The position numbers were made by a program, and so were the translations under genes. From IMG/VR virus record IMGVR_UViG_3300021061_000001: DNA of 64,000 bases; one strand, 5' to 3'. Position 1 is the first letter of the stretch. The number at the start of each line of letters is the position of its first letter. This document shows positions 46,759-62,569 of this stretch, in pieces. This DNA is from a virus. The notes beneath the pieces are model-generated. The model was not told the DNA's origin, did not search any database, and worked only from the letters and a program-made list of their open reading frames with translations.

Positions 46759-46802
46759 GCTCGTCCTTGCTGGTTGTCGGTTTCTTTTTTACGAGGCACT
46801 TC

Positions 46803-47951
46803 ATGGCAGACGAAGCCCCCCTGTTCCAAGCGGACACGTCGGAAGCCGCTCCCGCCAGCACCACTCCCGAACCTTCCGCGCCCGAAACACAGCCGGTCGC
46901 GGAAGCGTCTCCAGAACAACCGGCAGCGCAGCCAGCGCAGCCGTCAAGCCAGCCCGATACCGCAGCACAACAAGCCGCCCAGCCCGCCCAGCAGCCGTGG
47001 TGGTCCAGTCTGGGGGCCGACGAGTCCGCCGCGCAAGCCGCCGTCAACGGCATGCGGCAGCAGCTCGAACAGATGCGGCAACTCGCGCCTTACGCGAACT
47101 TCGTGGCGCAGTATCCGCAGGAAGTCCAGGAGTTCATTCGGGCCCGACACCAGAAGCAGCAACCGGCCGCCGCGCCCGCCACGGAAAAATCGTGGTACGA
47201 CGGGCTGTACGAGGCCCCGGAATACGATCCGGCCTGGCTGACGATGGTGCAGAAGAACCCGACCACGGGCCTGATCGAGTCTTTGCCGGGCTACCCGGCC
47301 GAAATCGGCCTCAAAGTGCAGGCCGCCTTGCACCACCAGCAGCAAGTGCAGCGGCGTTTCCTGGAAAATCCGCCCGAGTTCATCAAGCCCTTCGCGGAGC
47401 GGATCGCCGAGCAGGTGGCCGAAAAGGTCGTGCAGCGGCACCTGGGAGGCCGCGACGAACAGCAACTTCAGCGCGACTTCATCAACCAGAACAACGGCTG
47501 GCTCTACGAGCGCGACGACAAGGGCCAGCAGCGCATGACGCACGTCTGGGATCCCAACACCGGGCGGCAGGTGCAGACGCCGGTCCTGTCCGTGTGGGGC
47601 AAGCGCTACCGCGACCTGCTCAACGAGCGGCACGCCTACCAGATGCAGCGCTTCGGCCAGGCCGACTACCAGGATCAACTGGCGTGGGCGCTGGCGCACG
47701 TCAAGAACGAATACTACGAGTGGGCGCAGCAGCACGGCCAGCCACAGGCCGCAGCGCAGCCCGCTCCGGCACAGCCTGCCGCCGACCCGCGCAGTCCGCG
47801 CGAGAAGGCCAATGAGCAGTGGCTGGCCGGCCAGCCCAAGGCCGGTTCTCGGCCGTCCAACGGAAACACCGCACCCGCCGATACCCCCGTGACCAACAAC
47901 ACGTTCGCATCCCACCTGCTGCGTGAGCTGGAAACAGCCGGCGCGGCATAG
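46803..47951 (+). CDS. scaffolding-like protein (382 aa)
   Basis: ATG at 46803 has a GAGG RBS. It has Pro/Gln/Ala-rich ends and a helical core and lies directly upstream of the capsid gene. Confidence 0.6.
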   Translation: MADEAPLFQADTSEAAPASTTPEPSAPETQPVAEASPEQPAAQPAQPSSQPDTAAQQAAQPAQQPWWSSLGADESAAQAAVNGMRQQLEQMRQLAPYANFVAQYPQEVQEFIRARHQKQQPAAAPATEKSWYDGLYEAPEYDPAWLTMVQKNPTTGLIESLPGYPAEIGLKVQAALHHQQQVQRRFLENPPEFIKPFAERIAEQVAEKVVQRHLGGRDEQQLQRDFINQNNGWLYERDDKGQQRMTHVWDPNTGRQVQTPVLSVWGKRYRDLLNERHAYQMQRFGQADYQDQLAWALAHVKNEYYEWAQQHGQPQAAAQPAPAQPAADPRSPREKANEQWLAGQPKAGSRPSNGNTAPADTPVTNNTFASHLLRELETAGAA

Positions 47952-47973
47952 GGCCAGTTTGGGGGTTTAGGAC

Positions 47974-49122
47974 ATGGACCAAGCAACGCTTCGCGCGATC
48001 AACACCACGATCGCCAAGTATTTCAAGACCGTCGAAGAGGCGGTTTTGCGCAAGCGCGTTGTCCTCGCCATGCTCATGAGCAAGGGCAATATCCACATGG
48101 GGGCCTCGGGCCTCAAGATGAACTGGAAGATCCGCTTCAGGCGCACCAGTTCGCAGCCGCTCCTGGGCGGCCAGACCCTGACCTTCGTGCCGCGCGACCA
48201 GTGGCGCACGGCCGAACTGGGCTGGCGCGGTTTCGCCTCCACCAACTCCATCGAGGAGTTCGAGCTGGAGATGAACAAGGGCAAGGAAGCCATCGTCAAC
48301 GTCTGGTCCAACGCGGCCAAGCTGCTCGCCTCGGACATCGAGCAGAACTTCGCCGACCAGCTCTACACCGACGGCGAGGCTTCCGGCCGCGAGTCGGACC
48401 TGCACGGCTTCGAGTCGATCTTCGGCACCAACGGCGTTTCGACCAAGCGCCCCATCGGCATCAACGACGATAGCTACGCCGGTGTCGCCACCGACCTGGC
48501 CTCCGAGGGTGGTTCGTGGTCCACGACCGGCACCAATACGTCGTACACCGACTGGCCCGACGGCCGCGGCGACTACCACTACGACTTCTTCACCCCGCTC
48601 GTGGTCAACTACTCCTCCACGATCTCGACCAGCGCCGGCGCCGGCAACATCGGCTGGTCGGCCTCGACCAAGACCTGGCTCAACACCTGCATCGAGGCGC
48701 TGCGATTCGGCATCCTGGGCTGCTCCAAGAACGACGGCCCCGACGCCAAGATGGACCTCATCATCCTCGAACAGGCCATGATGCGGGACCTCAAGAACAA
48801 GCTCCAGGCCGAGGAGCAGATCACGGTCACGAAGAACACCGGCCCGGGCAGCCCCTACGCCCTGGGCTTCACCGACACGATCAACGTGGACGGCGTGGAC
48901 TGCATGTGGGAGTACGGCGTGCCGGCCAACGTCGGCTACGGCCTGCCTTTGGGCCTCATCGAGCTGCACTCGCTCAAGCCCAAGCTGTTCAACCCCGGCG
49001 GCCCGGACTTCCGCCCCGAGGATCAGTCCTGGCGGATCTGGACCAAGTTCATGGGCAATCTCAAGTTCGGCAACGAGAAGGGCGGCGTGCGGAACTTCCT
49101 CAAGTTCGCCGCTCTCGGCTAA
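47974..49122 (+). CDS. major capsid protein (382 aa)
   Basis: The call rests on size, position after the scaffold-like gene, composition, and the decoration-like gene and terminator that follow. The family was not confirmed. Confidence 0.65.
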   Translation: MDQATLRAINTTIAKYFKTVEEAVLRKRVVLAMLMSKGNIHMGASGLKMNWKIRFRRTSSQPLLGGQTLTFVPRDQWRTAELGWRGFASTNSIEEFELEMNKGKEAIVNVWSNAAKLLASDIEQNFADQLYTDGEASGRESDLHGFESIFGTNGVSTKRPIGINDDSYAGVATDLASEGGSWSTTGTNTSYTDWPDGRGDYHYDFFTPLVVNYSSTISTSAGAGNIGWSASTKTWLNTCIEALRFGILGCSKNDGPDAKMDLIILEQAMMRDLKNKLQAEEQITVTKNTGPGSPYALGFTDTINVDGVDCMWEYGVPANVGYGLPLGLIELHSLKPKLFNPGGPDFRPEDQSWRIWTKFMGNLKFGNEKGGVRNFLKFAALG

Positions 49123-49177
49123 GTCGTCATCCGCGTTCGCTTAACCATCAACCGCTCACGATTTCGAGGATATTGCC

Positions 49178-49798
49178 ATGAACAGTCCCTTGATGGAACG
49201 CGGCCAGACGGCATACGGCCCGACCGCGTCCATTGACACCAACGCTCTCAAGTTCGTGCACTGGGAGGGCAAGGAGTTCACCTTCGAGGACATCGACTAC
49301 AACGATGTCTCGGTGGGGACCAAGCCGCTCCGCTCCAAGGCCATGGTCAAGTGCCGCATCGTGCGGAATATGTCGAGCGCCACCCTGCTTCCCAAGCGGC
49401 TGGCGCGGCTCAAGAAGTCGGGCCTCGACATCCTATCCCGCGTGGACGGCTATGCCTGCACCACGGCGGACGGCCCGTGCTACCCCATCGACGAGTTCCT
49501 GCCCGCGGCCGGTGTGCGGCACGGCGATCTCTTTTACGTCGTCGTCGAAGGCCCGGCCATGGTGCTCACCGACATTGCCTCGGGGGCCAACAACCTGATC
49601 TCGGTCGGCGACTGGCTCGTGTCCCTGACCGGCGCCACCACCGGCGCCACCACGTCGGGCCGCGTCAAGCCGCAGGACCTCACCGGCGCCACCGCCCTGC
49701 TCGGCAACGAGATCCAGCACCGCATCGGTCGGGCGCTGTCGGCCCAGACCACGGCCAACACGGCCAACAGCCTGCTCATGAACGTGACGAAGTTCTGA
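49178..49798 (+). CDS. capsid-associated (decoration-like) protein (206 aa)
   Basis: It lies immediately after the capsid gene and is followed by a hairpin. Confidence 0.55.
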   Translation: MNSPLMERGQTAYGPTASIDTNALKFVHWEGKEFTFEDIDYNDVSVGTKPLRSKAMVKCRIVRNMSSATLLPKRLARLKKSGLDILSRVDGYACTTADGPCYPIDEFLPAAGVRHGDLFYVVVEGPAMVLTDIASGANNLISVGDWLVSLTGATTGATTSGRVKPQDLTGATALLGNEIQHRIGRALSAQTTANTANSLLMNVTKF

Positions 49799-49816
49799 CC
49801 CGCACTGTCGTGCGCC

Positions 49817-49850
49817 GGCCCGGTCTGGCACCTGCCAGGCCGGGCTTTCC
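49817..49850 (+). terminator. candidate partial terminator after the capsid genes
   Basis: A 10-bp stem (CCCGGTCTGG / CCAGGCCGGG, one G-U pair) with a 6-nt loop is followed by CTTTCC. Confidence 0.4.
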
Positions 49851-49868
49851 CACACCCGAGGACTCGTC

Positions 49869-50612
49869 ATGTCGGCCACCTGTCACCCCCGCCACATCCA
49901 GATCGACTACCGCCCTGGCACCCAGGACGAAGAAGCCTTCCGCGAAGTCATGTCCGAAAACTGCTACCGCCTCCCTTCGCGGCTCCGCGCCGACGACGTG
50001 GTGGTGGACGTAGGCGCGCACATCGGCAACTTTTCCCTGGCCTGCATCCTGCGCGGTGCTGGCCGCGTCCTGGCCTTCGAGCCGGACCGGGACAACTTCC
50101 GCTATCTGACCAGCAACCTCGAGCGCTGGATCGGCGCCACCGCCCGCAACGCCGCCGTCTGGCGCAGCGACAAGATCGAACAGGTCCATTTCACCGGCTA
50201 CCCGGCGCAGAACGCCTTCCTGGACGCCGCCCCCTACGCCAACGCCTGCGGCTCGTGCATGCCGCAGGTGAACGTGAGCGGGGTCAATGAGCGCCGCCCC
50301 GTGGAATCCGTGCCCCTGGACCAGATCCTGGAAGGCATCGCGGCGGACGGCAAGCGCGTGCGGCTACTCAAACTTGACTGCGAAGGAGCCGAGTTCCCCA
50401 TCCTCTACACCTCCAAGCGGCTCGATCTCGTTGACGAGATTTGCGGCGAACTGCACGATTTCGGCCTGCGCGGCCTGCCGCCGATGGTGGAGGGATTCAC
50501 CGACTACGACATGGACGAGATGGCCTACTACCTGGAGGGCCAGGGCTTCGACGTGGACGTGGAGCCCAATAGCCAGAGCCGGCAAATGTTCCTGTTCTGG
50601 GCCAGGCGCTAG
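49869..50612 (+). CDS. FkbM-family SAM-dependent methyltransferase
   Basis: VVDVGAHIGNFSL (motif I) and LLKLDCEGAEFPIL match the FkbM pattern. Confidence 0.75.
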   Translation: MSATCHPRHIQIDYRPGTQDEEAFREVMSENCYRLPSRLRADDVVVDVGAHIGNFSLACILRGAGRVLAFEPDRDNFRYLTSNLERWIGATARNAAVWRSDKIEQVHFTGYPAQNAFLDAAPYANACGSCMPQVNVSGVNERRPVESVPLDQILEGIAADGKRVRLLKLDCEGAEFPILYTSKRLDLVDEICGELHDFGLRGLPPMVEGFTDYDMDEMAYYLEGQGFDVDVEPNSQSRQMFLFWARR

Positions 50613-50640
50613 CCGCCACACCCTTACCCCCGAGGACACG

Positions 50641-51564
50641 ATGACCCCCGCGAAACTGAACATTCTCCTGGCCGGCTTCCCCTATGGCGGCAACGGCGCG
50701 ACCAGTTCCGAGGTGCCGTGCCTGCGCCACTGGTTCGCCAAGGTGGTGGTCGCAGCCAAGAAGGACGAGCGCGTTGGCGACATCTGGGCCATGGATTTCT
50801 CGGACACGCCCATCACGATGACCCGCAACGCGGCCGTGCTCAAGGCAAGACAACTGGGGGCCGACGTGCTGGTCATGTTCGATTCGGACCAGAAGCCCGA
50901 CATGCTCCTGGGCCAGGACCCGACCGCCAAGCCCTTCTTCGAGTCCAGTTTCGACTTCCTCTACGAGCGCAAGCAGCAAGGAAAGGCGACCTCGATCTGC
51001 GCCCCTTACTGCGGCGCGCCGCCCGAGCGGGTGCCGTTCTGCTTCACCTGGACCACCGACGACCCGGACCATCCCGACGGTCACGCACGGATGCGGCTCC
51101 TGACCCGCGAGGAAGCGGCCCTGCGCATGGGCATTCACGAGGTTCCGGCTCAGCCGACCGGCCTCATCATGTTCGACATGGACCTGTTCGAGATCACCGA
51201 CCCCAAGCACGAGTTCGAGCGCATGCTTCAGGCCGGTTATCCGCGGCAGATCGCTCAGGCGGTCACCAAGCCGTGGTTCTACTACGAGTGGCCGGACATT
51301 TATGCGGCCCGCAAGGACTCGACCGAGGACGTGACGGCCACGCGCGACATGGGGCTCGCGTGCATCAACGCCCGCGGCTACAACCCGCTCTTTTGCAACT
51401 ACGACGCCTGGGCCGGGCACTGGAAGCCGGAATGCGTTGGCAAGCCCAGGCCGATCAGTGGCGATGCCGTGAACGAGAAGTACCGCACTGCGGCCCTCAA
51501 AGGCAAGCAGTCCGGCGAAAGGCTGGTGCATGTCCGTGCCAACGGACAGCTTGTGAGCGCCTAG
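50641..51564 (+). CDS. glycosyltransferase-like protein (GT-A-type motifs), 307 aa
   Basis: ATG at 50641 has a GAGGA RBS. It contains VLVMFDSDQ (DxD-like) and a later STEDV...RD...G segment. The family was not confirmed. Confidence 0.5.
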   Translation: MTPAKLNILLAGFPYGGNGATSSEVPCLRHWFAKVVVAAKKDERVGDIWAMDFSDTPITMTRNAAVLKARQLGADVLVMFDSDQKPDMLLGQDPTAKPFFESSFDFLYERKQQGKATSICAPYCGAPPERVPFCFTWTTDDPDHPDGHARMRLLTREEAALRMGIHEVPAQPTGLIMFDMDLFEITDPKHEFERMLQAGYPRQIAQAVTKPWFYYEWPDIYAARKDSTEDVTATRDMGLACINARGYNPLFCNYDAWAGHWKPECVGKPRPISGDAVNEKYRTAALKGKQSGERLVHVRANGQLVSA

Positions 51565-51607
51565 CTCCGCCGCGCCCCGGCCAAGACCGTTTGACTGAGG
51601 GCTCCCG

Positions 51608-51925
51608 ATGTTCGCACAGGCTCCGCCAGACTGGCTCAACAACTGGGAGCGCTTCGGCTATGGCGGCATCAGCTTCCTCATGGCGGCCACGATGTTCTGG
51701 TTCTACGGCCGCCACTGGTTTCTGCGGCAGATCAAGCTGGCGGACATCTGCATCCGGGACAAGCGGATGTCGCGCAAGAGGCTCAGATGGGCGCACAGGC
51801 GGCTTCAAGAGGCCCTGCAAGGACTGGAAGAGGCACAGGCGGAACTGGTGGCCACCAAGGCCAAGGTGATCGAACTCGAACTGAGGCTCAGCCATGCAGA
51901 CCGTCCTGGTGATCGAGGACAGTAG
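51608..51925 (+). CDS. membrane protein with coiled-coil tail (105 aa), holin/spanin-like candidate
   Basis: It has one hydrophobic segment (GGISFLMAATMFWFY) followed by a charged helix. Confidence 0.5.
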   Translation: MFAQAPPDWLNNWERFGYGGISFLMAATMFWFYGRHWFLRQIKLADICIRDKRMSRKRLRWAHRRLQEALQGLEEAQAELVATKAKVIELELRLSHADRPGDRGQ

Positions 51926-52325
51926 CGAACTGGCCAAATTGTGGCAGCAGACCCTACCCGGCTTCGGCTTGCATGTGAGGCTGGCCGGCTCGCTCAGGGA
52001 GGCATTCGTGGCGCTAGCAGCAGAGGTCCCCGACTGCATCGTCCTTGATCTGTGCCTGCCAAACGGTGCCGGGGTCAACTGCGTTAAGGCAGTGCGGGCC
52101 GTCGCGGCCGACACCCCGTTGATCGTGGTCACTGGCTCGATCGAGCCGGGGCTGCGGGAAAGATGCCTGGCGGCAGGCGCGGATGTGTACTTGGAAAAGC
52201 CGACCGGGGTCAAGGACATGGTGCGGGAGATCAAGGTGGCGATCGCGACGCGCAGCACGCTGGCCGAGTGCGGCCGGCATATCGAGTCGGCCCGGCGCGG
52301 GCTGGCCTGCACGCGAGGGATGTGA
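51894..52325 (+). CDS. stand-alone CheY-like response-regulator receiver domain (143 aa)
   Basis: VLVIEDS (E8, D9), IVLDLCLP (D52), LIVVTG (T80) and YLEKP (K102) give the full receiver signature. No output domain is present. Confidence 0.8.
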   Translation: MQTVLVIEDSSELAKLWQQTLPGFGLHVRLAGSLREAFVALAAEVPDCIVLDLCLPNGAGVNCVKAVRAVAADTPLIVVTGSIEPGLRERCLAAGADVYLEKPTGVKDMVREIKVAIATRSTLAECGRHIESARRGLACTRGM

Positions 52326-52954
52326 TGAGCGAAGAACGCCTGCATGCTCTGGAAGGCGCGTTGACGGAACTGCGTACCCGGCTGTCCGCCGTCGAAACGC
52401 ATGCCGTCGAGATGGACCACCGGATCGACGTGCTGGAGGAACCCAACCCAATCGTCGTCAAGGCCAGGGGCTGGCTCGGCTGGCTGTGGGAAAACAGGCC
52501 CGAGTGGCGAACACTCCTGCCTTACCTCATCATCGCCGCCCTGCTCCTGCGCGGCGGTCAGGGCTGCGACATCCGCTGCGACCGGCTGCCGATCCCCGAC
52601 TGGGTCAATCCGATTCCTGTCCCCAAGGGGGACCTGCGCGTCGTGGTCATCTACGAGTCGGCCGATGAGCACAAACTACCGGCCGGTCAGCGCAACATCA
52701 TCATGGGCCAGAAATTCCGCGACTGGGTGACGGCCCACTGCGGCAAGTCCGATGGCAGGACGGCCGACTTCCGCGCCTACGACAAGGACACCGACACCGC
52801 CAACGATTATCCGTGGGCGCAAGAGGCCATGAAGCGGCCGCGTGCCGAACTGCCGTGGATCGTGGTCATCAAGGGAACCTCGATCGTTCACGAGGGCAAA
52901 TTGCCCGCCGACCCGGACCAGGCGATTTCGCTCTTGTCGAAGTACGGAGCCTGA
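52325..52954 (+). CDS. coiled-coil / TM / C-terminal globular domain protein (209 aa)
   Basis: ATG overlaps the upstream TGA. The hydrophobic segment is LLPYLIIAALLL. Confidence 0.6.
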   Translation: MSEERLHALEGALTELRTRLSAVETHAVEMDHRIDVLEEPNPIVVKARGWLGWLWENRPEWRTLLPYLIIAALLLRGGQGCDIRCDRLPIPDWVNPIPVPKGDLRVVVIYESADEHKLPAGQRNIIMGQKFRDWVTAHCGKSDGRTADFRAYDKDTDTANDYPWAQEAMKRPRAELPWIVVIKGTSIVHEGKLPADPDQAISLLSKYGA

Positions 52955-52955
52955 G

Positions 52956-53765
52956 ATGCCCGACATCATCACCATCACCGACGACAACTATCGTGGCTTC
53001 ATCGACTCGGCCGATGACATGCCGGGCGACCACAAGGGGCTCACCCCTCGCGACTTCGCCACCTTCCCGGTCGGCCACTACGCCAACGCTGGCCCGATCG
53101 ATTTCCCCCTCTTCTCCGATGAGCAGATCGAGAAGGAGATCAGGAACCAGGAGGAGAACGGTTCCTCGCTCGAACATCTGCGAATGACTTACGACGGCGG
53201 CAAGCCGATCGACGCCCTGGACCAGAACGGGCAGGGCTATTGCTGGGCCTACTCGACGACTTCCTGCGTGACCCTGGCGCGGGCCAAGCAGGGCATGCCC
53301 TACGAGCCGCTGTCGGGGCACATGATCGGCTGCATCATCAAGAACTATCGCAACCAGGGCGGTTGGAACGCGCAATCGATGCAGTTCGCGCAGGAGCATG
53401 GCGTGGCCTCGCAAAAGTTCTGGCCCGCCAAGTCGATGTCGCGCTCCAACGACACGCCCGAGATGCGCGAGGACGCCCGCAAGCGCCGCATTACCGAATG
53501 GTGGGACCTGTCGGACGATCCCGAGACGGTCAAGCGGCAGTTGGCGACCCTGCTCCTGCTCAACTGCCCGGTGGCGGTGGACTTCAACTGGTGGTTGCAC
53601 TCGGTCTGTGCCATCCGGCTCATGTCGTGGCGGCCGTTCAAGATCAGGATTCTCAATTCGTGGTCCAATAGCTGGTCGAAATTGGGCATGGGCGACCTCG
53701 AAGGGGGCCGGGCCATTCCCAACGGCGCGATCGCGCCGCGCGTCATCACCGCCAAGGCGGCCTGA
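52956..53765 (+). CDS. papain-family (C1-like) cysteine peptidase (269 aa)
   Basis: QNGQGYCWAYS (Gln and Cys), WWLHSV (His) and ILNSWSNSWSKLGMG (Asn-Ser-Trp) appear in the canonical order. Confidence 0.7.
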   Translation: MPDIITITDDNYRGFIDSADDMPGDHKGLTPRDFATFPVGHYANAGPIDFPLFSDEQIEKEIRNQEENGSSLEHLRMTYDGGKPIDALDQNGQGYCWAYSTTSCVTLARAKQGMPYEPLSGHMIGCIIKNYRNQGGWNAQSMQFAQEHGVASQKFWPAKSMSRSNDTPEMREDARKRRITEWWDLSDDPETVKRQLATLLLLNCPVAVDFNWWLHSVCAIRLMSWRPFKIRILNSWSNSWSKLGMGDLEGGRAIPNGAIAPRVITAKAA

Positions 53766-53779
53766 AAGGAAGGTGTTCC

Positions 53780-54331
53780 ATGAAGAAGTTCATCGACAAC
53801 CGGCACGTCTACATCGGTCTGGGCATCTTCGCGGCTGTGCTGGTGCTGGCCATCTCGCTCGGCGCCTTCCAGTCGAAAGCCAACCCCATCCTGCCGCCGC
53901 CTCCCGTGCCGGATCAGGTGCCTGTCATCGACGACGACAAGCGACCGGACGGCTTTCTGGAACCCAAACCGGAACCCGTCAAGAAACAGGCGAGCAGCCC
54001 TTATTGTGATCCGTCCTGCTCCTGCGGATGCCAGGGGGGCGGGTCGTGCGTCTGCTACATGACCATGCGAGCCAGAGCGATCAAGGAGGGGGCTGGTCTG
54101 GTGGTCTGGATCGGCTGCCGGCGCGGCACAGGCTACGACGATCATTTGCACTGCGAAGTGAAGTCGCTGCCTGGCTTCGAGGGGTTCAAGGGGCATGTCA
54201 TCAGCTACGTCAGGAACGGCGAGTTGTGGTTCGCCAGGGCGGTGCCGCACGCGGCCATGCAGGCCCCGAGGCAACCAGTGTTCTTCCAGCCGGGCGGTGG
54301 AGTCGTGCGCATGCGCGGACGCTCGTGCTGA
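53780..54331 (+). CDS. N-terminally anchored Cys-rich protein (183 aa)
   Basis: It has the TM segment VYIGLGIFAAVLVLAISLGAF, a Pro-rich linker and CDPSCSCGCQGGGSCVC. Confidence 0.6.
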   Translation: MKKFIDNRHVYIGLGIFAAVLVLAISLGAFQSKANPILPPPPVPDQVPVIDDDKRPDGFLEPKPEPVKKQASSPYCDPSCSCGCQGGGSCVCYMTMRARAIKEGAGLVVWIGCRRGTGYDDHLHCEVKSLPGFEGFKGHVISYVRNGELWFARAVPHAAMQAPRQPVFFQPGGGVVRMRGRSC

Positions 54332-54375
54332 TAGGTCCGATGTCGGCTCCGGTGCGGGGCCAGAGGAGACATGCC

Positions 54376-54594
54376 ATGGAAAACGAAGTGCAAAAGGCCA
54401 TGATGGCGGCGGCGGCGGTCGGCCTGAACCTTACCGAGGAGCAGGTCAGGGCGATCCTGGACCTCATCTACAGCGGCGGCGATTCGGTCGTGCTGGCCAC
54501 GGCCAACCCGTTCGACAACCTGGCCTGGGCCATCGCCAAGCCGATTCTCAAGCAGTTCGAGGCCAAACTGATCGCGATTCTGACCAAGAAGTGA
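54376..54594 (+). CDS. small protein (72 aa)
   Basis: AGAGGAGA RBS lies 6 nt upstream of ATG 54376. Confidence 0.5.
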   Translation: MENEVQKAMMAAAAVGLNLTEEQVRAILDLIYSGGDSVVLATANPFDNLAWAIAKPILKQFEAKLIAILTKK

Positions 54595-54597
54595 TCC

Positions 54598-54708
54598 ATG
54601 GATCGCTGGATCATTCGAGCCCTGGTGCTCCTGGCTGCCCCGATCTGGGTGCCTTACATCGCCTGGCTCGTGGCCAGGGATGTTCTGGCCGAGATGAAAA
54701 AGAGGTGA
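54598..54708 (+). CDS. 36-aa hydrophobic peptide
   Basis: The translation is MDRWIIRALVLLAAPIWVPYIAWLVARDVLAEMKKR. It fills the gap between two genes and is below the ORF-track cutoff. Confidence 0.3.
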   Translation: MDRWIIRALVLLAAPIWVPYIAWLVARDVLAEMKKR

Positions 54709-54711
54709 CCC

Positions 54712-55083
54712 ATGTCCCGCTCTCTCGTGCTCCTGAAACTCGTCCTGCTCCTGGCCCCGGTCGTGCCCGCCGAGCGCAAGGAGGGCCAGCAGCCGGTGCC
54801 GGATCTGGTGGCGACCACTCAATTCGGTTCGATGACCCAGAGCGGCAAGGTGCTGACGATCCAGGGCACCTACTGGTCGGCGACGGGCGAAATCCGCGAG
54901 GACGGCACGATCTACCTCTTGTGGATCACCAGGGGCGGCCGCATCGCTCCGGGCGTGTACCGGCAAGACGGAGACACGCTTGTGGGAAATTGGGGCTGGG
55001 TCGATGACGTGGAGATCGCCTTGGACGGCGAACTGATCGGGCAAACGTGTCGCGAGACGCTGTACCTGACGCGGCCCAAGTGA
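54712..55083 (+). CDS. secreted protein with signal-peptide-like N-terminus (123 aa)
   Basis: MSRSLVLLKLVLLLAPVVPA. Confidence 0.6.
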   Translation: MSRSLVLLKLVLLLAPVVPAERKEGQQPVPDLVATTQFGSMTQSGKVLTIQGTYWSATGEIREDGTIYLLWITRGGRIAPGVYRQDGDTLVGNWGWVDDVEIALDGELIGQTCRETLYLTRPK

Positions 55084-55185
55084 GCCTTACCCCGGCGTCA
55101 CCGTGTTCGGCTGGGCGACGGGCCGGTGCGCCGGGGCGGATCTTGTGATGGAAGGGGATGGGTGGGGGCCTGTCCCCGGTGTGGA

Positions 55186-55225
55186 CCGGACCTGGGGAGG
55201 GCGACCGAACCAGGTCCGGGTTTAT
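55186..55225 (+). other. 10-bp perfect hairpin in the 212-bp gap before the terminase genes
   Basis: CCGGACCTGG - N14 - CCAGGTCCGG is followed by GTTTATC. Confidence 0.35.
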
Positions 55226-55295
55226 CGCCGGCAGGCCGGGACAGTCGGAAGCGTACACCGCATACCGGCCGCCGGCGGCCATCGAGGCGAAGTAG

Positions 55296-55706
55296 ATGCC
55301 GAAGAAGAAGTCCGCGAGCAAACGAACCGAAGAAGCCATGCTCGTGGAGACGATGCGCGGAGCCCTCCAGACCCGCAACACCGGCATGCTCCGCGAGATC
55401 ATGGAAGAGACGATGAACCTGGCCGGCGGAACCAGGTGCTTCGCGAAGCTCTTGTGGGATGCGTACACGTCCTCTGACGCCGGGCCGCTCTTGCGGTCAC
55501 GCATCCTGGACGTGTGGATGAGAGCCCTGATGGTGACCCAGCCCAAGGGCGACCCCGACAACGATCTTGGCGCACTCAGCGCCGAGGACATCGACAGGGA
55601 GATGAAGGAGTTGATCGGTGCCGTTCGATCCGAGCAAAATGCCGCCGACGCCGCCCAAGAGGACCACCACCTCGAAGGCGACGACGACAGCGCCGAAGAA
55701 GAATAG
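55296..55706 (+). CDS. candidate small terminase subunit (136 aa)
   Basis: Assigned by position directly upstream of, and overlapping, the large subunit gene. It has a basic N-terminus and an acidic tail. Confidence 0.45.
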   Translation: MPKKKSASKRTEEAMLVETMRGALQTRNTGMLREIMEETMNLAGGTRCFAKLLWDAYTSSDAGPLLRSRILDVWMRALMVTQPKGDPDNDLGALSAEDIDREMKELIGAVRSEQNAADAAQEDHHLEGDDDSAEEE

Positions 55707-57372
55707 CGTGCCCGAAGCGCCGCCGCCTGGGATGCCCGAGCACAAGCTGGCCCGCTTCCGCAAGCTGCTCGTCGCTCGCGCCAAGCTGCGCATGGAAGGG
55801 CTCAAGCTGTTCGAGCCCATGCCGGTGCAGACCGCCTTCCTCTCCTCCTCCTGCCGCGAACGCATCGTCTATGGGTCCAACCGCAGTGGCAAGACAACGG
55901 TGGCCATGGTGGACCTGGCCCGCATCCTGACCGGCCAGGACCCGCTCGGCCGCCTGCCGCGCGAGAACCTGATCTGGTATGTGGTTGGCAAGGACGGCCG
56001 CGAGCTGGCCAACGTCGTTCACAAGAAACTGTTCATGCCCGCCTGCTTCCAGATCATCCGCGACGAACGGACCCGGCAGTGGCGAGCCTTCCGGCCTTAT
56101 CAGGAGGCGGACGCCCAGAGAGAGCAGGAAGCACGCTGGGCTCCGCCCCTGATCCCGGAGCGGTTCGTCCGCGAGGTGTCGTGGGAGAACAAGAAGGAAG
56201 GGCTGCCCAAGCTGGTGAAGCTCATCAACGGCTCGGAGATCCACTTCTTCTCGGGCAACGCCCGTCCGCCACACGGCTCGTCGATTCACGGGGCGAACTT
56301 CGACGAGGAAGTGCCCGACGGCTGGTATGCCGAGATCGCGGCCCGCCTGGTGGACTACCGCGGCTACTTCACCTGGTCGGCCACGCCCGAGCAGGGCACG
56401 GACCAGCTCCTCATCCTGCACGAACGGGCGATGGGGGAGATGGAGCGGTTCATGCAGACCGGCGTCAAGCCGTCCATCGAAGAGTATTTCATGGCCATCC
56501 ACGGCAACCGGCACCTGACCCGGGAGCAGGTGGAGGAGTTCGAGTCGAAGCTGACCGACGAGCAGAAGCGGGTCAAGGTCTACGGCGAGTTCCTGCAGCT
56601 TGGCGCGTCGGTGTTCCCCGAGTTCCTGCCATCGCTGCATGTCGTGGACCAGTTCCCGATCCCGCTCGACTGGACGCGCTACCTTTACATCGACCCCGGT
56701 TATCAGGTGTGTGCGGTCCTGTTCATGGCCGTGCCCGACCCTCGCGACGAGAAGCACGCCGGTTACAGGTACGTCTACGACGAACTGTACCTCTACAACT
56801 GCAACGCGGACCTGTTCGGCCGCAAGATGCGCGAGAAGTGCGAGGGGCAGGACTTCGAGGCGTTCCTGATCGACGAGCACGAGGCGCGCAAGCACTCGGC
56901 CGGCGACGGCAAGACTCTGGCCTCGCAGTATTCGGAGGCCCTGAGCCGCTACAAGATTCGTTCGCGCACGACCGGCTACGGTTTCTCGCCCGGCTCGGAC
57001 GATCCCAAGGCCGACGTGGCGGCCATTCGCGACTGGCTGCGTAACCGGCCCGACAAGGGGCCGATCCTGCGCGTCTTTCCCAAGGACGCCATCCCCAACT
57101 TCCACTACGAGATCACGCACTGGCGGTTCAAGAAGGACGCCAAGGGGCTGGTTACGGATGAACCCGAATCGCGCGGGCGCGTTCACCTCATGGCGGGGCT
57201 GCGCGGGCTGGTGCAGTGCGATCCGCAATGGGTCAGGCCCAAGCACATGCCGGCACCGGACGAGATCCAGCGCATCATCGCCGAGGACCGCAGGCGCGAG
57301 AAGGCCCTGTATGGCGACGGCCCCGCGGTGTTTTGCGGCCCGCGCGGCGCGCGGGTGGGGGTGGGGGCATGA
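55618..57372 (+). CDS. terL: terminase large subunit
   Basis: Walker A is GSNRSGKT and the Walker B-like segment is GANFDEE. The product is 584 aa. GTG start has AAGGAG 7 nt upstream. Confidence 0.85.
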   Translation: MPFDPSKMPPTPPKRTTTSKATTTAPKKNSVPEAPPPGMPEHKLARFRKLLVARAKLRMEGLKLFEPMPVQTAFLSSSCRERIVYGSNRSGKTTVAMVDLARILTGQDPLGRLPRENLIWYVVGKDGRELANVVHKKLFMPACFQIIRDERTRQWRAFRPYQEADAQREQEARWAPPLIPERFVREVSWENKKEGLPKLVKLINGSEIHFFSGNARPPHGSSIHGANFDEEVPDGWYAEIAARLVDYRGYFTWSATPEQGTDQLLILHERAMGEMERFMQTGVKPSIEEYFMAIHGNRHLTREQVEEFESKLTDEQKRVKVYGEFLQLGASVFPEFLPSLHVVDQFPIPLDWTRYLYIDPGYQVCAVLFMAVPDPRDEKHAGYRYVYDELYLYNCNADLFGRKMREKCEGQDFEAFLIDEHEARKHSAGDGKTLASQYSEALSRYKIRSRTTGYGFSPGSDDPKADVAAIRDWLRNRPDKGPILRVFPKDAIPNFHYEITHWRFKKDAKGLVTDEPESRGRVHLMAGLRGLVQCDPQWVRPKHMPAPDEIQRIIAEDRRREKALYGDGPAVFCGPRGARVGVGA

Positions 57373-57548
57373 AGCAGCGCGAACGCGGCTCGCTGGACGC
57401 TCAGCTTCGGGATCTTGGCTTCAAGATCCATTCCCGGCCGTCCAAGGGGGAGCCGATCTGGGAGCGGCTAGGGATCAGGTACACACAGAAGGCGGCGCTG
57501 GAAGTTCTGGCCCGCTACAAGGAAACCCACAAGGAGAACCAGCAGTGA
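57369..57548 (+). CDS. small protein (59 aa)
   Basis: ATG overlaps the terL stop (ATGA). Confidence 0.45.
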   Translation: MKQRERGSLDAQLRDLGFKIHSRPSKGEPIWERLGIRYTQKAALEVLARYKETHKENQQ

Positions 57549-57889
57549 GCGCAACAGCAACCGCGCCGGCCAAAGGGCCGGTCCAGTACGACATGCCCGA
57601 GGTGGAGCCGGGCAGCCTGGTGTGGTGGTACCGGGAAGGACATCCGCACGGGGAGCCGACGGCGGCTCTCGTGACGCGTGTCTATGCCCGCAGCGTGGAC
57701 CTCAACTTCTTCGTCGCGGGACGGGCCACGATGGACGGCCGCTCCGGGGTGCGCTGCTGCGACGACCCGGACATGAAGGACTCGGAGCGGCGCTACAACG
57801 GCGGCTGGACGCTGACCGGCCAGGACCGCAAGCTGCGCGAGCGGCTGGCGGCCCTGGAGGCACAGGTGAAGGACCTCAAGAAGAAGTAG
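57545..57889 (+). CDS. small protein (114 aa)
   Basis: GTG overlaps the upstream stop (GTGA). AGGAGA RBS. Confidence 0.5.
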   Translation: MSATATAPAKGPVQYDMPEVEPGSLVWWYREGHPHGEPTAALVTRVYARSVDLNFFVAGRATMDGRSGVRCCDDPDMKDSERRYNGGWTLTGQDRKLRERLAALEAQVKDLKKK

Positions 57890-57893
57890 GCCG

Positions 57894-59798
57894 ATGGACA
57901 ACCCTTTCCTGGCGGTGAAGTCCGGCTGGATCAAAAAGATCGTGGCGTCCCTGAAAGCCAAGCAGGAGTTTCAGGAGAACGCCAACGAGGGGATGGCGTT
58001 TTTCAATGGCCCCTACGACTTCCTCTATAAGCCGGAAACATTCGCCGAGAAGAAGTCCCTGGCCTGGCACGGCGACGGTTCGTTCCCAACCCCCGGCTTC
58101 GGCATCGTCATCAACAAGATTTCCGAGGGGGTGCAGCTTTTCGGGCCATCGCTCTACCACCGCAACCCGGACAGGCAGGCCACGCCGCGCCTGTTCCCGA
58201 TCCTGCCGCCGGAGGTGTTCGGCGACCCGCTGGACCCCGCCGTGCAGCAGATGCACCTGGCCATGAAGATGCAGGTCATGCAGGAGCAGCTTCCCGACCG
58301 CATCCGCGGCCGCCTGGTGGAGCACTACCTGGACGCCACCCCGAACATGCTGGACCTGGAAAGTTCGGCCCGCAAGGTGGTGGACGAGGCGATCATCAAG
58401 GGCATGGGCTGCTTCCGGCACAAGCTCTACCGCGTGCCGGGCGGGCGCATGCGGGTGGCGGGCTCGTTCTATCAGTCGGTCGATGACGTGACCGTGGACC
58501 CGGACATGGAATCGTTCGAGGACGGCAAGTGGCTGGCCATCCGCTGCGTCAAGCCGATCTGGGAGGTCGAGGACCAGTACAACCTGCCGCGCGGCTCGCT
58601 CAAAAACAAGGGCACCGACCAGTCGCTGACCCAGAACGAAACCAGCACCGATTTCGAGACGCAGTTGCGGCGGGTCAAGGGGGAGACGTGCGACCTCCTG
58701 ACCTACTGGGAAGTCTATTCCCGGATGGGCATGGGCTCGCTCCTGTCTGGCGTCCACGAGGACGCCAAGGCCATCGACGTGTTCGGTCCCTACGTGAAGC
58801 TGGTCGTGGCCGAGACGGTCGATTACCCGCTCAATCTCCCCGAGGCGATCTGGGCCGACAAGGACGCCGTGGCCCGCGCCGTTCAGTGGGACACGCCGTT
58901 CTGGGTCGGCGACGGCTGGCCGGTGACGCCGCTCAGTTTCCACTGGATCCCGCGCAAGGTCTGGCCGCAGTCGCACTTCGCCCCGGCCATGGGGGAGTTG
59001 CACTTTCTCAACTGGGCCTACTCGTTCATCGCCACGAAGATGGCGGTGTCGATCAAGGACTGGATCGGCATCAAGGCTGGCGCGGAAGAGGCGATCCAGA
59101 AGGCCATCGAGAGCCCGGTCGGCGACTACCGCGTCGTCAAGATCCCGGCCAACCTCGGCGACAACATCAAGGACGTGATCGAGTTCCTTCAGCATCCGCC
59201 GTTCCACCCGCAGTTCTTCCAGGTGGTGCTGGCGTTCATGGAGAGCTTCGACAAGCGCACCGGCCTCACGGAACTCATGTACGGCCAGACCGCCACCCAG
59301 TCGCGTTCCTCGGCCGACTCGCAGCTCAAGGGCGAGGCCATGAAGATTCGCCCCGACGACATGGCCAAACAACTCGAACGCACCATGGCCGCCACGGGCT
59401 GGAAAGAGGCCCTGATGGCCCGCTGGCACCTGGAGCCGGAGGATCTGCTGCCGATCCTCGGCCAGGTCGGGACGCAGTATTGGCAGCAGTTCGTGGCCAC
59501 GCACGACCCGGCCCAGCTCGTTCACGGCCTGGAGTATCGCGTCGAGTCGGGCAACATCCGCAAGCCGAACCAGGACAAGAAGGCGCAGGACGCGACGGCG
59601 GCGTTGTCGCAACTATTCCAACCCTTCTGGCAATATGCTACGATGACTGGCGACGTGAATCCGGTCAACGCCCTCGTCACGCTCTGGTGCGAGGGGCAGC
59701 AGCTTGATCCGGCCCCCTTCCTCCTTCCCACACCACCTCCCGTAGCTCCCACCGCTACCGGCCAACCCCCTCCCGAAAAACCGAAGGAAGCCGCATGA
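57894..59798 (+). CDS. portal protein (634 aa)
   Basis: Assigned by size and position downstream of terL. The family was not confirmed by motif. Confidence 0.65.
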   Translation: MDNPFLAVKSGWIKKIVASLKAKQEFQENANEGMAFFNGPYDFLYKPETFAEKKSLAWHGDGSFPTPGFGIVINKISEGVQLFGPSLYHRNPDRQATPRLFPILPPEVFGDPLDPAVQQMHLAMKMQVMQEQLPDRIRGRLVEHYLDATPNMLDLESSARKVVDEAIIKGMGCFRHKLYRVPGGRMRVAGSFYQSVDDVTVDPDMESFEDGKWLAIRCVKPIWEVEDQYNLPRGSLKNKGTDQSLTQNETSTDFETQLRRVKGETCDLLTYWEVYSRMGMGSLLSGVHEDAKAIDVFGPYVKLVVAETVDYPLNLPEAIWADKDAVARAVQWDTPFWVGDGWPVTPLSFHWIPRKVWPQSHFAPAMGELHFLNWAYSFIATKMAVSIKDWIGIKAGAEEAIQKAIESPVGDYRVVKIPANLGDNIKDVIEFLQHPPFHPQFFQVVLAFMESFDKRTGLTELMYGQTATQSRSSADSQLKGEAMKIRPDDMAKQLERTMAATGWKEALMARWHLEPEDLLPILGQVGTQYWQQFVATHDPAQLVHGLEYRVESGNIRKPNQDKKAQDATAALSQLFQPFWQYATMTGDVNPVNALVTLWCEGQQLDPAPFLLPTPPPVAPTATGQPPPEKPKEAA

Positions 59799-59920
59799 AG
59801 TGTGCTTCGTGCAAGAAGGTCCGCGTTCGCTTCCGCGGTAATCGCTGCGCTCGCTGCGGTGACAAGATCGTCAAGGCGGCCATCCGTCTCATCAAGCGCG
59901 AAAGGTCAGGTGCCCGATGA
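59795..59920 (+). CDS. 41-aa zinc-ribbon peptide
   Basis: The translation is MKCASCKKVRVRFRGNRCARCG... ATGA overlaps occur at both ends. Confidence 0.4.
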   Translation: MKCASCKKVRVRFRGNRCARCGDKIVKAAIRLIKRERSGAR

Positions 59921-60135
59921 TGCCTCCTCAAGATCCCATGGCCCAGCTCATGGCCGGACAGGGGCCGGCGATGCCCGGCGGCGTACCCGGCGCCGCCGTC
60001 TGTCCCATGTGCGGCATGCCCATGGGCGCCCCGGTCGGCATGCCCCCCGGCCCGCCGATGGCCATCCCGCCCGAACAAGACCAGAGCCCGCTCGCGGCCA
60101 TGCTGATGGGCGGAGCGCCTCCGGGAGCCTACTGA
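59917..60135 (+). CDS. Met/Pro/Gly-rich small protein (72 aa)
   Basis: Coupled at both ends and of low complexity. Confidence 0.45.
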   Translation: MMPPQDPMAQLMAGQGPAMPGGVPGAAVCPMCGMPMGAPVGMPPGPPMAIPPEQDQSPLAAMLMGGAPPGAY

Positions 60136-60695
60136 TGCCCAGCCACGCCGAGTACCTGGAACTGTTCGCCGAGACGGACGATCCGGCGCAGATCGAGCAC
60201 TACGAACTGTGCCGCAAGAACGGCGCGTCGCACCGGCTGGCGCTGATGCTGGCCCTGGGCGTGCCGCCCATGTCCAACTCGGATCGGGAGTTTTTGCAAG
60301 GCTCGGAGAATGGCCGCCAGTTCCAGAACTGCCCGCACATCGGCAACGCTTACGCGAAGCTGGCCAAGCGGGCCGGGTTCACGGACCTGTCAGGCAAGAA
60401 GTACCTGTCGGGCCTGGCCCGCTTCCCGGGCGATCCCGAGGCGTGGGTATCCGACCGCAGCGACGTGAAGCGCGTTCTGGAGAACCGCGGATGGGGGGCG
60501 GAGGGGGCGGTCACGACCAAGGTCCGCGAACTGGACCAGCCTCCCGAGATTACCCCGGTTGCTCCGCACATCGTCGAACGCGAGACGCAGGCGGAGGTGG
60601 CCAAGACGGGGCCGGTGACGCCCAAGAAGAGGCGAGAGATCAAGGAGCAGGTCCGCGAGCGGCTAACGCCGCACTGGGCCAAGAAGGGGGTCTGA
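60135..60695 (+). CDS. head-module protein (186 aa)
   Basis: ATG overlaps the upstream TGA. Composition is balanced. Confidence 0.6.
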   Translation: MPSHAEYLELFAETDDPAQIEHYELCRKNGASHRLALMLALGVPPMSNSDREFLQGSENGRQFQNCPHIGNAYAKLAKRAGFTDLSGKKYLSGLARFPGDPEAWVSDRSDVKRVLENRGWGAEGAVTTKVRELDQPPEITPVAPHIVERETQAEVAKTGPVTPKKRREIKEQVRERLTPHWAKKGV

Positions 60696-60696
60696 C

Positions 60697-61005
60697 ATGG
60701 CGAACAAGATCGGCAAGATCGTGGAGCAGATCGTGTCGGATGCGGTGGCGACGGGGCAGGTGGCCCTGAACGCCTCGACGCCGACCCTGATCGCGGCGGC
60801 GCGGCCGGGGCGGCAGCGCATCACGATCACCAACGATTCCTCGATCAAGGTCTACATCGGCGGCTCGACCGTCGCGACCAACAGCGGGGACATGATCGCG
60901 GCCACGTCCGGCTCGGCCAAGACATACCACACGGAGGCGGCGCTGTACGGCATCGCGGCCTCGGGCACCCCCACCGTCACGTACCTGGAAGAATACGTCT
61001 CTTGA
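60697..61005 (+). CDS. small beta-rich virion protein (102 aa)
   Basis: It starts 2 nt after the upstream stop. Confidence 0.6.
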   Translation: MANKIGKIVEQIVSDAVATGQVALNASTPTLIAAARPGRQRITITNDSSIKVYIGGSTVATNSGDMIAATSGSAKTYHTEAALYGIAASGTPTVTYLEEYVS

Positions 61006-61024
61006 TCCGAAGGGAGATCGCGTC

Positions 61025-62068
61025 ATGTCTCTGAACGTAGCAATCGAACCTCGTCTGGCGAAGGCCCTCAAGGACGACGGACTGGCCCGCGACCTCGTAA
61101 CGGACATCAACGCCGTCCTCGACGGCAGCCTGGGCGACACGACTCCCGGCACGGTCGAAGCCTCCAAGGTCGTGGTGGTGGATTCCAACAAGGACATCTC
61201 CAGTTTCCGCAACGTCGGGCTCACCGGCGACCTGACCCTGGCCAGCGGCGGCAATCTCGTCCTCAGCGGGGCAACGGGCGAGTCGGAAATCATCCTCACC
61301 GACAACCTGGCCGATGCCCTGTCCGTCAAAATCTCGGGCGGCGCGGACTTCTTCGTGTTCTGCACCACCGACTCGGCCGAGAAGCTGACCCTCGCCCAGG
61401 ACTTCCACCTCATCGGCGGCAAGGACTTGGTATTCACGGGGGCAACCGGCGAGTCGGAGATCCACCTGACGGATAACCTGGCGGACGCTCTTTCGGTCAA
61501 GATCGCTGGCGGGGCCGATTTCCTCGTCTGCGTCACCACCGATTCCGCCGAGAAGATCAACATTTCGCAGGACGTTCACTTGATCGGCGGCAAAGACCTC
61601 TTGTTCGTCGGGGCCACGGGCGAGTCCGAAATCCACCTGACCGACAACCTCGCCGATGCCCTGTCGGTGAAGATCGCGGGCGGTGCCGACTTCCTGGTGT
61701 TCGTGACCACGGACTCGGCCGAAGGGATCACGGTCGGCCAGCATCTGACCATGGCCGACGCCAAGAACATCATCCTCAACACCACGACCGGCACGAAGAT
61801 CGGCACGGCCACGACCCAGAAGCTGGGCTTCTACAACGCCACGCCGGTCGCGCAGCCCGCCGCGCTGACCGCGCAGCTTACGACCATCACGCATACCGCT
61901 CCGGGTAGCGACGACTTCGCCATCCAGAACCTGACCAATTCCTCGCCCTTCGGCTTCGTGACGGCGGACGAAGGCAACACGGTCCTCAAGGTGATCGCCA
62001 ACTTGCAGGCCAGACTGGCCGAAGTGGAAGCCCGTCTCGAAGCTCTCGGACTCGTGGCCGCCAACTAA
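61025..62068 (+). CDS. virion fibre/decoration protein with three 57-aa tandem repeats (347 aa)
   Basis: The repeat is GATGESEI.LTDNLADALSVKI.GGADF.V..TTDSAE. The C-terminus ends in the coiled coil LQARLAEVEARLEALG. Confidence 0.75.
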   Translation: MSLNVAIEPRLAKALKDDGLARDLVTDINAVLDGSLGDTTPGTVEASKVVVVDSNKDISSFRNVGLTGDLTLASGGNLVLSGATGESEIILTDNLADALSVKISGGADFFVFCTTDSAEKLTLAQDFHLIGGKDLVFTGATGESEIHLTDNLADALSVKIAGGADFLVCVTTDSAEKINISQDVHLIGGKDLLFVGATGESEIHLTDNLADALSVKIAGGADFLVFVTTDSAEGITVGQHLTMADAKNIILNTTTGTKIGTATTQKLGFYNATPVAQPAALTAQLTTITHTAPGSDDFAIQNLTNSSPFGFVTADEGNTVLKVIANLQARLAEVEARLEALGLVAAN

Positions 62069-62078
62069 GGAGCCTCGC

Positions 62079-62558
62079 ATGGCCGTATCCGGTCCAGCTA
62101 CGTTCCGCCTGGAAACGGCGCTGAACGATCCCGATTCCGCCCGCCACCTGATCGAGCAGATCAACGCGGCGGGCGGCACGGTCATCGACGAACTGGTGAC
62201 CCTGACCAACGCGGTCACGGTCAACCTGTCGCAGGTCGTGCCGTCGGGATCGGTCGTTTTGTCGGTCCAGGCCAACTTGCAAACCACCGTGAGCGGGGAC
62301 GGGTCGGGGGACGATTTGCTGGCCAAGGTCGGCATCGGCACCACCGTGGACCCCGACAAGTACGCCATCACCTCGGCGCTGACCAAAAACTCCAAGGCCA
62401 AGGGGCTGGCCGACTGGGCCGTCCTGGCCTCCGACGAGCAGATCGCGGTCAGGGCCTGCCAGTCGGACGGCTCCCCATGCACCGAGAAGTTCCTGGCCGG
62501 GGGCCAGGTCCGCGTCCGCGTCGTGTACCTGTCCGTTCCCGACCTGGGCAACGCCTGA
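62079..62558 (+). CDS. virion protein (159 aa)
   Basis: Compact ORF between two fibre-like genes. Confidence 0.65.
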   Translation: MAVSGPATFRLETALNDPDSARHLIEQINAAGGTVIDELVTLTNAVTVNLSQVVPSGSVVLSVQANLQTTVSGDGSGDDLLAKVGIGTTVDPDKYAITSALTKNSKAKGLADWAVLASDEQIAVRACQSDGSPCTEKFLAGGQVRVRVVYLSVPDLGNA

Positions 62559-62569
62559 GAGGGTGACCT

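Follow-up and report, generated by a model that had tools for sequence, protein, structure and literature searches.

What can a phage do with a phosphorylation receiver when it encodes no kinase? In bacteria, two-component signalling ordinarily forms a closed circuit, and a phage that carries the receiver half alone must tap host phosphodonors, so that it would read out, or brake, host signalling directly. The question is raised by a plus-strand gene at positions 51894-52325 of a 64,000-nucleotide viral DNA (IMG/VR virus record IMGVR_UViG_3300021061_000001; this whole stretch is called the window here), which an earlier note, made from the sequence alone, had described as a stand-alone CheY-like receiver in a late membrane-protein cluster. 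The gene almost certainly specifies a real receiver domain, and very probably it is a late gene of the phage itself. Our overall explanation, offered tentatively and at somewhat less than an even chance, is that a captured late-operon receiver, phosphorylated by the host, would tune a late membrane event through contact with a partner protein.

The Pfam profile PF00072 (Response_reg) matched residues 4-113 of the product over profile positions 1-110 of 111, with 71.3 bits (E = 9.5e-20) against a cutoff of 30.2. The phosphoacceptor residues listed in the earlier note, E8-D9, D52, T80 and K102, were exact, and Y99, at the aromatic switch position, and P103 were present as well; E8-D9, D52, T80 and K102-P103 align with their counterparts in KdpE and CheY. 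Also as stated before, no output domain was found: Pfam detected no second domain in the 143-aa protein, and in the structural model the residues past the receiver form a single helix. Since single-sequence AlphaFold prediction was unusable (predicted local distance difference test score, pLDDT, 43.8), an AlphaFold2 model built with a 30-sequence alignment of the nearest homologues was used instead. This model reached a pLDDT of 94 and a predicted template modelling score (pTM) of 0.85, and revealed a (beta-alpha)5 fold in canonical order (Table 1), with an unusually long alpha-5 helix. A Foldseek search of the model against PDB gave 612 matches at E<=1e-3, and the best 50 were all receiver domains or receiver-containing proteins. 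The top match was the E. coli KdpE receiver (template modelling score, TM-score, 0.91 by the target; root-mean-square deviation 1.5 Å; 33% identity), followed by other receiver domains, mostly of the OmpR/PhoB family and of the NtrC type. Profile and model therefore confirmed the proposed fold, and the alternative considered in the earlier note, a non-receiver flavodoxin-like fold without an acidic pocket, is not what the model shows. PHROG families 731, 5982 and 20458, all annotated as function unknown, match the receiver too. Judged from sequence and model, the best explanation is that the protein is a functional, phosphorylatable single-domain response regulator.

The reading frame runs from an ATG to a TGA, and its GC content at third codon positions (GC3) is 0.84, in the same range as the real genes of the window (64% GC); a long antisense ORF on the minus strand (51497-52672) failed the GC3 filter. 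The receiver start lies inside the upstream gene, w105, with an overlap of 32 nt; at its other end, the receiver TGA and the start codon of the next gene, w209, have one base in common (TGATG, at 52325). Thus, the stop/start coupling to a downstream transmembrane protein gene was borne out, as were the upstream overlap and the coiled coil of the upstream product; the transmembrane nature of the latter is only probable because its hydrophobicity is weak. The w105 segment stays below the Kyte-Doolittle window threshold of 1.6, with a hand-calculated mean of ~1.0 over residues 17-34, and we regard it as a probable transmembrane segment. No promoter-like site was found at the receiver gene. There was one short terminator-like match on the opposite strand (52512-52498), inside the w209 gene, and the count of such sites in the region was at the shuffle level. 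Because the gene overlaps both neighbours and has no promoter-like site of its own, the receiver is a co-translated member of the late operon rather than a self-contained moron.

This operon belongs to a single plus-strand late block, which runs from 46767 to 64000 and continues from 1 to 21796. The identical receiver protein was found on six contigs, the longest of 68,103 bp, and on this contig the end of the window connects to its start via ~4.1 kb (L270, 10492-17006); therefore, the phage genome is circularly permuted and ~68.1 kb long, and the window represents ~94% of it in rotated form. Three genes, of 1277, 427 and 461 aa, lie in the ~4.1 kb outside the window, and none has a Pfam match on record. 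A minus-strand ORF at 62668-63441 with high GC3 was rejected as the shadow of the 1277-aa plus-strand gene, which runs off the window end. A major-head-protein PHROG match lies at 47974-49122, the terminase large subunit at 55732-57372 and the portal protein at 57894-59798, and the Pfam matches among the window ORFs included Phage_integrase, RusA, HNH, PD-(D/E)XK and helix-turn-helix (HTH) regulators. A Pfam scan of the 87 window ORFs detected no HisKA, HATPase_c or Hpt domain, and none is on record for the 4.1-kb remainder, in agreement with the earlier statement that no phage histidine kinase is visible. Any phosphorylation of the receiver must therefore come from host donors.

The host is likely a planctomycete. 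When 20 kb of the window was compared with GenBank phages by megablast, there was no match. Relatives of the terminase (40-68% identity) number in the hundreds, and many of them lie on contigs of 60-70 kb. Relatives occur as prophages in the chromosome of Singulisphaera sp. GP187 and in Planctomycetales and Planctomycetota metagenome-assembled genome (MAG) contigs of 0.6-2.7 Mb, and further ones in Fimbriiglobus, Pirellulaceae and Phycisphaerales MAGs. The host assignment follows from this position of the relatives inside Planctomycetota chromosomes. For the same reason, and considering the Phage_integrase match and the HTH regulators, the ~68 kb phage is classed as temperate. Three of the Planctomycetota contigs, GP187 (L008, 6.28 Mb) and two MAG contigs (L020 and L022, 2.7 and 0.6 Mb), carry terminase relatives of 37-40% identity, and these copies look like integrated prophages of a phage family of ~65-70 kb.

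The name "CheY-like" holds only at the superfamily level. When the sequence was compared with solved structures, the KdpE receiver scored best with 62 bits, versus 34.7 bits for Vibrio CheY4, and KdpE was also first in Foldseek; the protein is thus nearer to OmpR/KdpE-type receivers and single-domain regulators than to CheY. It has in common with KdpE the spacing of E8-D9, D52, T80, Y99 and K102-P103, at 33-34% identity. However, members of the OmpR/PhoB family such as KdpE have a winged-helix Trans_reg_C domain, whereas the window receiver is without any DNA-binding domain and therefore cannot be an OmpR/PhoB-type transcription factor. It is extremely improbable that the protein is a true CheY that feeds the host chemotaxis or motility pathway and alters the swimming of infected cells. 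Like CheY it has a single domain, and it matches Vibrio CheY4 weakly; but KdpE scored far higher and also leads by structure, CheY has no such extended alpha-5 helix, and no che genes were found by Pfam among the 87 window ORFs. With relatives that are generic single-domain regulators, the chemotaxis slant of the earlier note could not be maintained. A CheD Pfam match (E = 2e-4) in the product of 61025-62065 was spurious, covering 29 residues (211-239) with 21.9 bits, below the cutoff of 25. That product is a 347-aa protein of the structural region, beta-helix-like, with DUF2807 (head GIN domain) repeats.

Another receiver-fold protein of phages without a histidine kinase is cREC, the cyclic-phosphate-processing receiver of jumbo phages (Iyer et al. 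2021, PMC7824862). It is a divergent receiver tied to NAD+/ADP-ribose-processing genes, whereas the window protein is a canonical PF00072 member, and no NAD+/ADP-ribose-processing genes appeared in the Pfam survey of the window. The cREC entry in the viral structure library BFVD matched the window receiver weakly (E = 1.9e-4; TM-score by the query, TMq, 0.55).

An exhaustive HMMER scan of 1.84 billion representatives returned 159,034 receiver matches, among which the only close full-length relative was P0148, a 146-aa protein that is 45% identical and aligns up to residue 140, so that the tail is included. It lies on a contig of 1.9 kb (56% GC), where a 110-aa protein, L184_110, is encoded upstream and overlaps the receiver start by 20 nt. 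Along its whole length L184_110 shows 27% identity to w105 (E = 1.5e-9), and the two proteins are built alike, with a charged coiled coil after a weakly hydrophobic N-terminal segment. Between w105 and the 121-aa protein in the same slot of the closest relative of the phage, L002, there was no BLAST signal, although the flanking genes are 35-71% identical. Because the pair is kept at P0148 and w105 shows no similarity by BLAST to the L002 protein in its slot, w105 and the receiver probably arrived as a two-gene cassette, and the simplest reading would be that they moved as a unit and displaced a resident small membrane protein. Whether the receiver also works together with w105 we consider an even question. 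Comparison of w105 with ORF29 of the Alteromonas phage V22 and with L068_136, a protein of the related locus L068, gave no BLAST signal, and the likeness is architectural only. A His-Ala pair near the C-termini of w105 and L184_110 was rejected as a candidate phosphotransfer histidine, as it is simply the embedded ATG of the receiver gene (CAT-GCx).

Further searches gave no other member of this family. The word-indexed homologue search with the receiver alone found only itself, IMG/VR scans with the receiver alone and with the window and P0148 alignment gave no match, and the GTDB genome scan found only generic receivers of <=37% identity; the family thus has two known members. A profile made from these two retrieved 30 proteins, all single-domain receivers of 96-146 aa with 31-45% identity, which have the alpha-4 motif RERCLAAGA in common with the window receiver. 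Two of these relatives were inspected: the cellular P0273 adjoins a PAS histidine kinase and a hybrid kinase, and P0271 lies on a short contig with a transposase neighbour and no kinase gene. Since the profile matches were all single-domain receivers and P0273 sits beside kinases, the phage gene derives from ordinary bacterial single-domain regulators. Such regulators (for example P0271-P0298, 117-135 aa) have the same domain and likewise no output domain; the phage receiver differs in an alpha-5 helix that is ~22 aa longer, in the absence of a kinase and in its coupling to w105. Functional analogues among single-domain regulators are DivK, CpdR, Spo0F and sink CheYs, and the action expected of such proteins is phospho-dependent protein-protein contact or phosphate shuttling.

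This origin bears on another possibility, in which the receiver would be a phosphate sink or decoy without a specific partner, draining host kinases or competing with cognate regulators and so blunting a host response (envelope stress, defence or development) late in infection. The phospho-site is complete, the phage has no kinase, and the nearest cellular relatives are single-domain regulators beside histidine and hybrid kinases. Moreover, residues A14, L16, W17, Q19 and L21 of alpha-1, the usual kinase-docking surface of receivers, are conserved between the window receiver and P0148. We nevertheless rate a sink as rather unlikely: it leaves the pairing and translational coupling with w105 and the conserved long alpha-5 unexplained, and a late-operon product could act only late in infection.

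The receiver is an accessory gene of the phage family, as it is absent from a syntenic relative and was found at one other site among about 180 related loci. L002, whose terminase is 68% identical, has the same gene order without a receiver. Its 394-aa, head and 206-aa proteins are 43-71% identical to those of the window, its FkbM protein 51% and its 307-aa protein 71%, and the order continues with a small transmembrane/coiled-coil protein, a w209 homologue (35%), a papain-like peptidase (53%) and the terminase. A receiver hidden Markov model (HMM), made from the window protein with KdpE, PhoB, CheY and Spo0F, was used to search 183 related loci (2.37 Mb; ORFs of all six frames). The window aside, it found a receiver only at L068/L104 (IMGVR_UViG_3300028146_000001, 65.4 kb, terminase 47% identical). 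This second receiver (~4245-4679) is stand-alone, with ~144 aa; the ED pair, D, T and K are kept, and K is followed by S, not P. It is 30% identical to the window receiver pairwise, and 20-21% in an alignment of four receivers. It lies between a homologue of the 206-aa protein and a series of two-transmembrane, transmembrane/coiled-coil and coiled-coil proteins, then a 414-aa C1-like peptidase. That one phage family has two divergent receivers in the same module may mean that the gene is ancestral and was lost repeatedly, or that receivers were captured more than once.

An accessory gene with a patchy distribution, in a temperate phage whose relatives are Planctomycetota prophages, is also what lysogenic conversion would need; the receiver would then be expressed from the prophage and rewire host two-component signalling (behaviour, development or superinfection immunity) for the lysogen. 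We consider this very unlikely. The gene is embedded in the late operon, overlaps both neighbours and has no promoter-like site of its own, its GC3 equals that of the neighbours, and these features are not moron-like. In addition, the comparable receiver-bearing phages V22 and A5 are grown on Alteromonas, and there is no integrase among the annotated features of V22 at positions 1-50000.

These two phages are the clearest precedents. Alteromonas phages vB_AmeM_PT11-V22 and vB_AemP_PT15-A5 were isolated and grown on Alteromonas, and V22 gp30 (CDS-30) and its homologue A5 gp11 were published, without experiments, as "CheY-like" class II auxiliary metabolic genes (AMGs) (PMC7289586, PMC10579305). 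Both proteins (149 and 147 aa) are stand-alone receivers like that of the window, and no kinase is reported for these phages either. Both have a complete phospho-site and a C-terminal helical extension, as the window receiver does, and the BFVD matches span 139-141 columns (V22 gp30: TMq 0.80 over 141 columns). The Foldseek search of BFVD also found A0A516LRC2 (153 aa, TMq 0.88) and, from an uncultured Caudovirales phage, a 143-aa "CheY-like receiver". It further returned phage response regulators of greater length and the histidine kinases for which phaeoviruses and giant viruses are well known. Stand-alone phage receivers are thus already catalogued (PMC7289586, PMC10579305, BFVD), and that of the window is a sequence-distinct further one. 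In V22 and A5, as in the window, the receiver is a late-region gene that is coupled to genes for small coiled-coil or membrane proteins and lies near a peptidase or endolysin. There are differences as well: downstream of the receiver V22 has a spanin-like gene, whereas the window has w209, a coiled-coil/transmembrane protein with a large C-terminal domain; the V22 and A5 hosts are Gammaproteobacteria, whereas the window phage has a probable Planctomycetota host; and the neighbours are not demonstrably homologous. V22 gp30 and the window receiver are ~20% identical, and a tblastn search of GenBank phages with the window receiver at E 1e-3 matched no Alteromonas phage. For these reasons, the window receiver is read as an independent acquisition and not as an orthologue of V22 gp30. 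Most receiver matches in the tblastn search were unannotated contigs or multi-contig records with ompR, creB, qseB or baeR, probably host DNA, and were set aside. The match in Burkholderia phage vB_E427 is a 229-aa protein beside a resistance-nodulation-division (RND) efflux adaptor gene and is not comparable.

When the receivers of the window, P0148, L068 and V22 gp30 (20-45% identity) were aligned, the acidic pair, the phospho-accepting Asp, the Thr/Ser and the Lys were kept in all of them, and all four have a C-terminal extension of 22-30 aa. Retention of the phospho-site in four such divergent receivers argues for selection on phosphorylation. The point matters for the possibility that the fold is a pseudo-receiver, that is, a structural or assembly module that is never phosphorylated. 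Phosphorylation-independent receivers exist in bacteria, and no kinase is encoded nearby; yet pseudo-receivers typically lose some of the phosphorylation residues, and these four have kept every one, which makes this reading highly unlikely.

We return to the explanation of a host-phosphorylated receiver that acts through a partner. The receiver would be made late in infection, along with its neighbours, and its phosphoryl donor would be a histidine kinase of the host, an Hpt protein or acetyl phosphate. As there is no output domain, it would act by contact with other proteins, using its alpha4-beta5-alpha5 face and the long alpha-5 helix that protrudes from the fold. The cytoplasmic coiled-coil parts of w105, w209 or both would be the likeliest partners. 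A basic stretch comes after the hydrophobic segment of w105 and, following the positive-inside rule, would place its coiled coil in the cytoplasm, the same compartment as the receiver. In this way, the signalling or energy state of the host might tune a late membrane event; the best candidate would be the moment at which the module of the papain-like peptidase w269 brings about lysis or envelope breakdown. The lysis reading draws on w269 being the sole hydrolase candidate in the Pfam survey, with no canonical endolysin domain among the 87 window ORFs, and on the analogy with V22 and A5. That the receiver controls lysis timing, as the earlier note had suggested, is a reasonable but doubtful proposal.

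A broader proposal would be that unrelated phage lineages (Alteromonas myo- and schitoviruses and the Planctomycetota-type phage family) have independently put a kinase-less receiver into the lysis or envelope module. Host kinases or acetyl phosphate would phosphorylate it there, the phosphorylation would be read through alpha-5 and a small membrane coiled-coil partner, and the receiver would serve as a phospho-switchable, antiholin-like timer that links lysis to the physiological state of the host. We regard this generalization as distinctly unlikely.

Several points weigh against a receiver that acts on lysis, and some against the explanation as a whole. The receiver is dispensable, since relatives live without it. 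At only 20-30% identity between the window receiver and those of V22 and L068, the shared context may be convergence or coincidence. Pfam and PHROG gave no match at all for w105, w209 or w183, whether to a holin, a spanin or another lysis family. The peptidase w269 belongs to the C1 type, outside the known muralytic families, and to speak of a "lysis cassette" is an inference from position. The literature holds no experiment on phosphorylation, partner or phenotype for any phage stand-alone receiver, and we found no functional study of such receivers or of receivers in lysis cassettes.

The recurrence of receivers beside peptidase, spanin and membrane genes in V22, A5 and the Planctomycetota-type family would turn scattered "AMG" annotations into a lysis-timing hypothesis, for which the Alteromonas phages are a cultured system. 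New here are this recurrence in unrelated phages, the cassette of w105 and the receiver, and the accessory status of the receiver within the Planctomycetota-type family. The analysis also adds a described accessory gene to a large and almost unannotated phage family of ~65-70 kb.

Table 1. Coordinates and elements of the receiver, its model and neighbouring genes, with the corresponding loci of Alteromonas phages V22 and A5 (nucleotide positions in the window; residue numbers in the receiver where indicated)
Feature	Position	Strand	Description
Stand-alone receiver	51894..52325	+	Residues 1-118 form the receiver domain; the extended alpha-5 continues to residue 141
Beta strands of the model	residues of the receiver		beta1 2-7, beta2 26-31, beta3 48-52, beta4 76-80, beta5 98-101
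Helices of the model	residues of the receiver		alpha1 11-24, alpha2 34-43, alpha3 61-70, alpha4 87-93, alpha-5 106-141
GAGG, Shine-Dalgarno-like	51883..51886	+	7 nt before the receiver ATG (-11 to -8), within the w105 gene; read from the sequence
w105, 105 aa	51608..51925	+	Weakly hydrophobic N-terminus (~residues 17-34), basic coiled-coil-like C-terminal half
w209	52325..52954	+	N-terminal coiled coil, short hydrophobic segment (~residues 62-76), conserved C-terminal domain of ~130 aa
w269, papain-family (C1) cysteine peptidase-like	52956..53765	+	Pfam Peptidase_C1, 29.7 bits
w183	53780..54331	+	N-terminal transmembrane anchor, Pro-rich linker, Cys-rich C-terminal part
V22 locus			ORF28, papain-like amidase; ORF29, 125 aa, weak hydrophobic N-terminus and coiled coil; ORF30, receiver
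V22 ORF31			Transmembrane segment and coiled coil; 32-nt overlap with the end of the receiver; Rz-like spanin by PHROG, E = 7e-6
V22 ORF32			Two transmembrane segments
A5 locus			gp10; gp11, receiver; gp12 (35-nt overlap); gp13; gp14, annotated endolysin

Among the neighbours, w209 has homologues in relatives without a receiver, at 35% identity in L002 and at 39% over the C-terminal domain in L003. For w269, the PDB matches were bromelain and papain, in the region of the catalytic Cys motif GYCWAYS, and NSWSNSW lined up with NSWGARW; the gene is kept in L002 (53% identity), and the C1-like ORF of 414 aa is its counterpart in type in L068. It is a candidate envelope or lysis enzyme. The hydrophobic segment of w183 (residues 7-34) has a Kyte-Doolittle mean of 2.5. 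In the w105 slot of L002, the 121-aa transmembrane/coiled-coil protein (5594-5959) gave weak "hol-like chemotaxis" PHROG matches (E = 1e-3 and 4e-3), which may reflect coiled-coil composition alone. In L004 (7034-8743; terminase 50% identical), the w269 slot is taken by a Peptidase_M10 metalloprotease, with a cytochrome-c-like (CBB3) protein encoded before it, and the type of protease at this slot seems to be swapped across the phage family.

Other genes of the late block were also noted. The late operon starts with two adjacent genes for proteins of 394 and 382 aa (46767-47951 and 47974-49122), of which only the second matches a major-head-protein PHROG; it is unusual for head genes to precede terminase and portal. 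The region at 49869-51564, which separates the head genes from the receiver cluster, encodes an FkbM-type methyltransferase (247 aa) and then the 307-aa protein, which has no family match and in which a glycosyltransferase-like DxD-type motif, FDSD, was seen by eye; this pair is kept in L002 and L004. Farther along, a 752-aa late protein (12394-14652) has an E1_FCCH-like domain at residues 104-157 with 28.4 bits, just below the cutoff, and the same Pfam family is on record for a 785-aa protein of L003 (21404 onwards).

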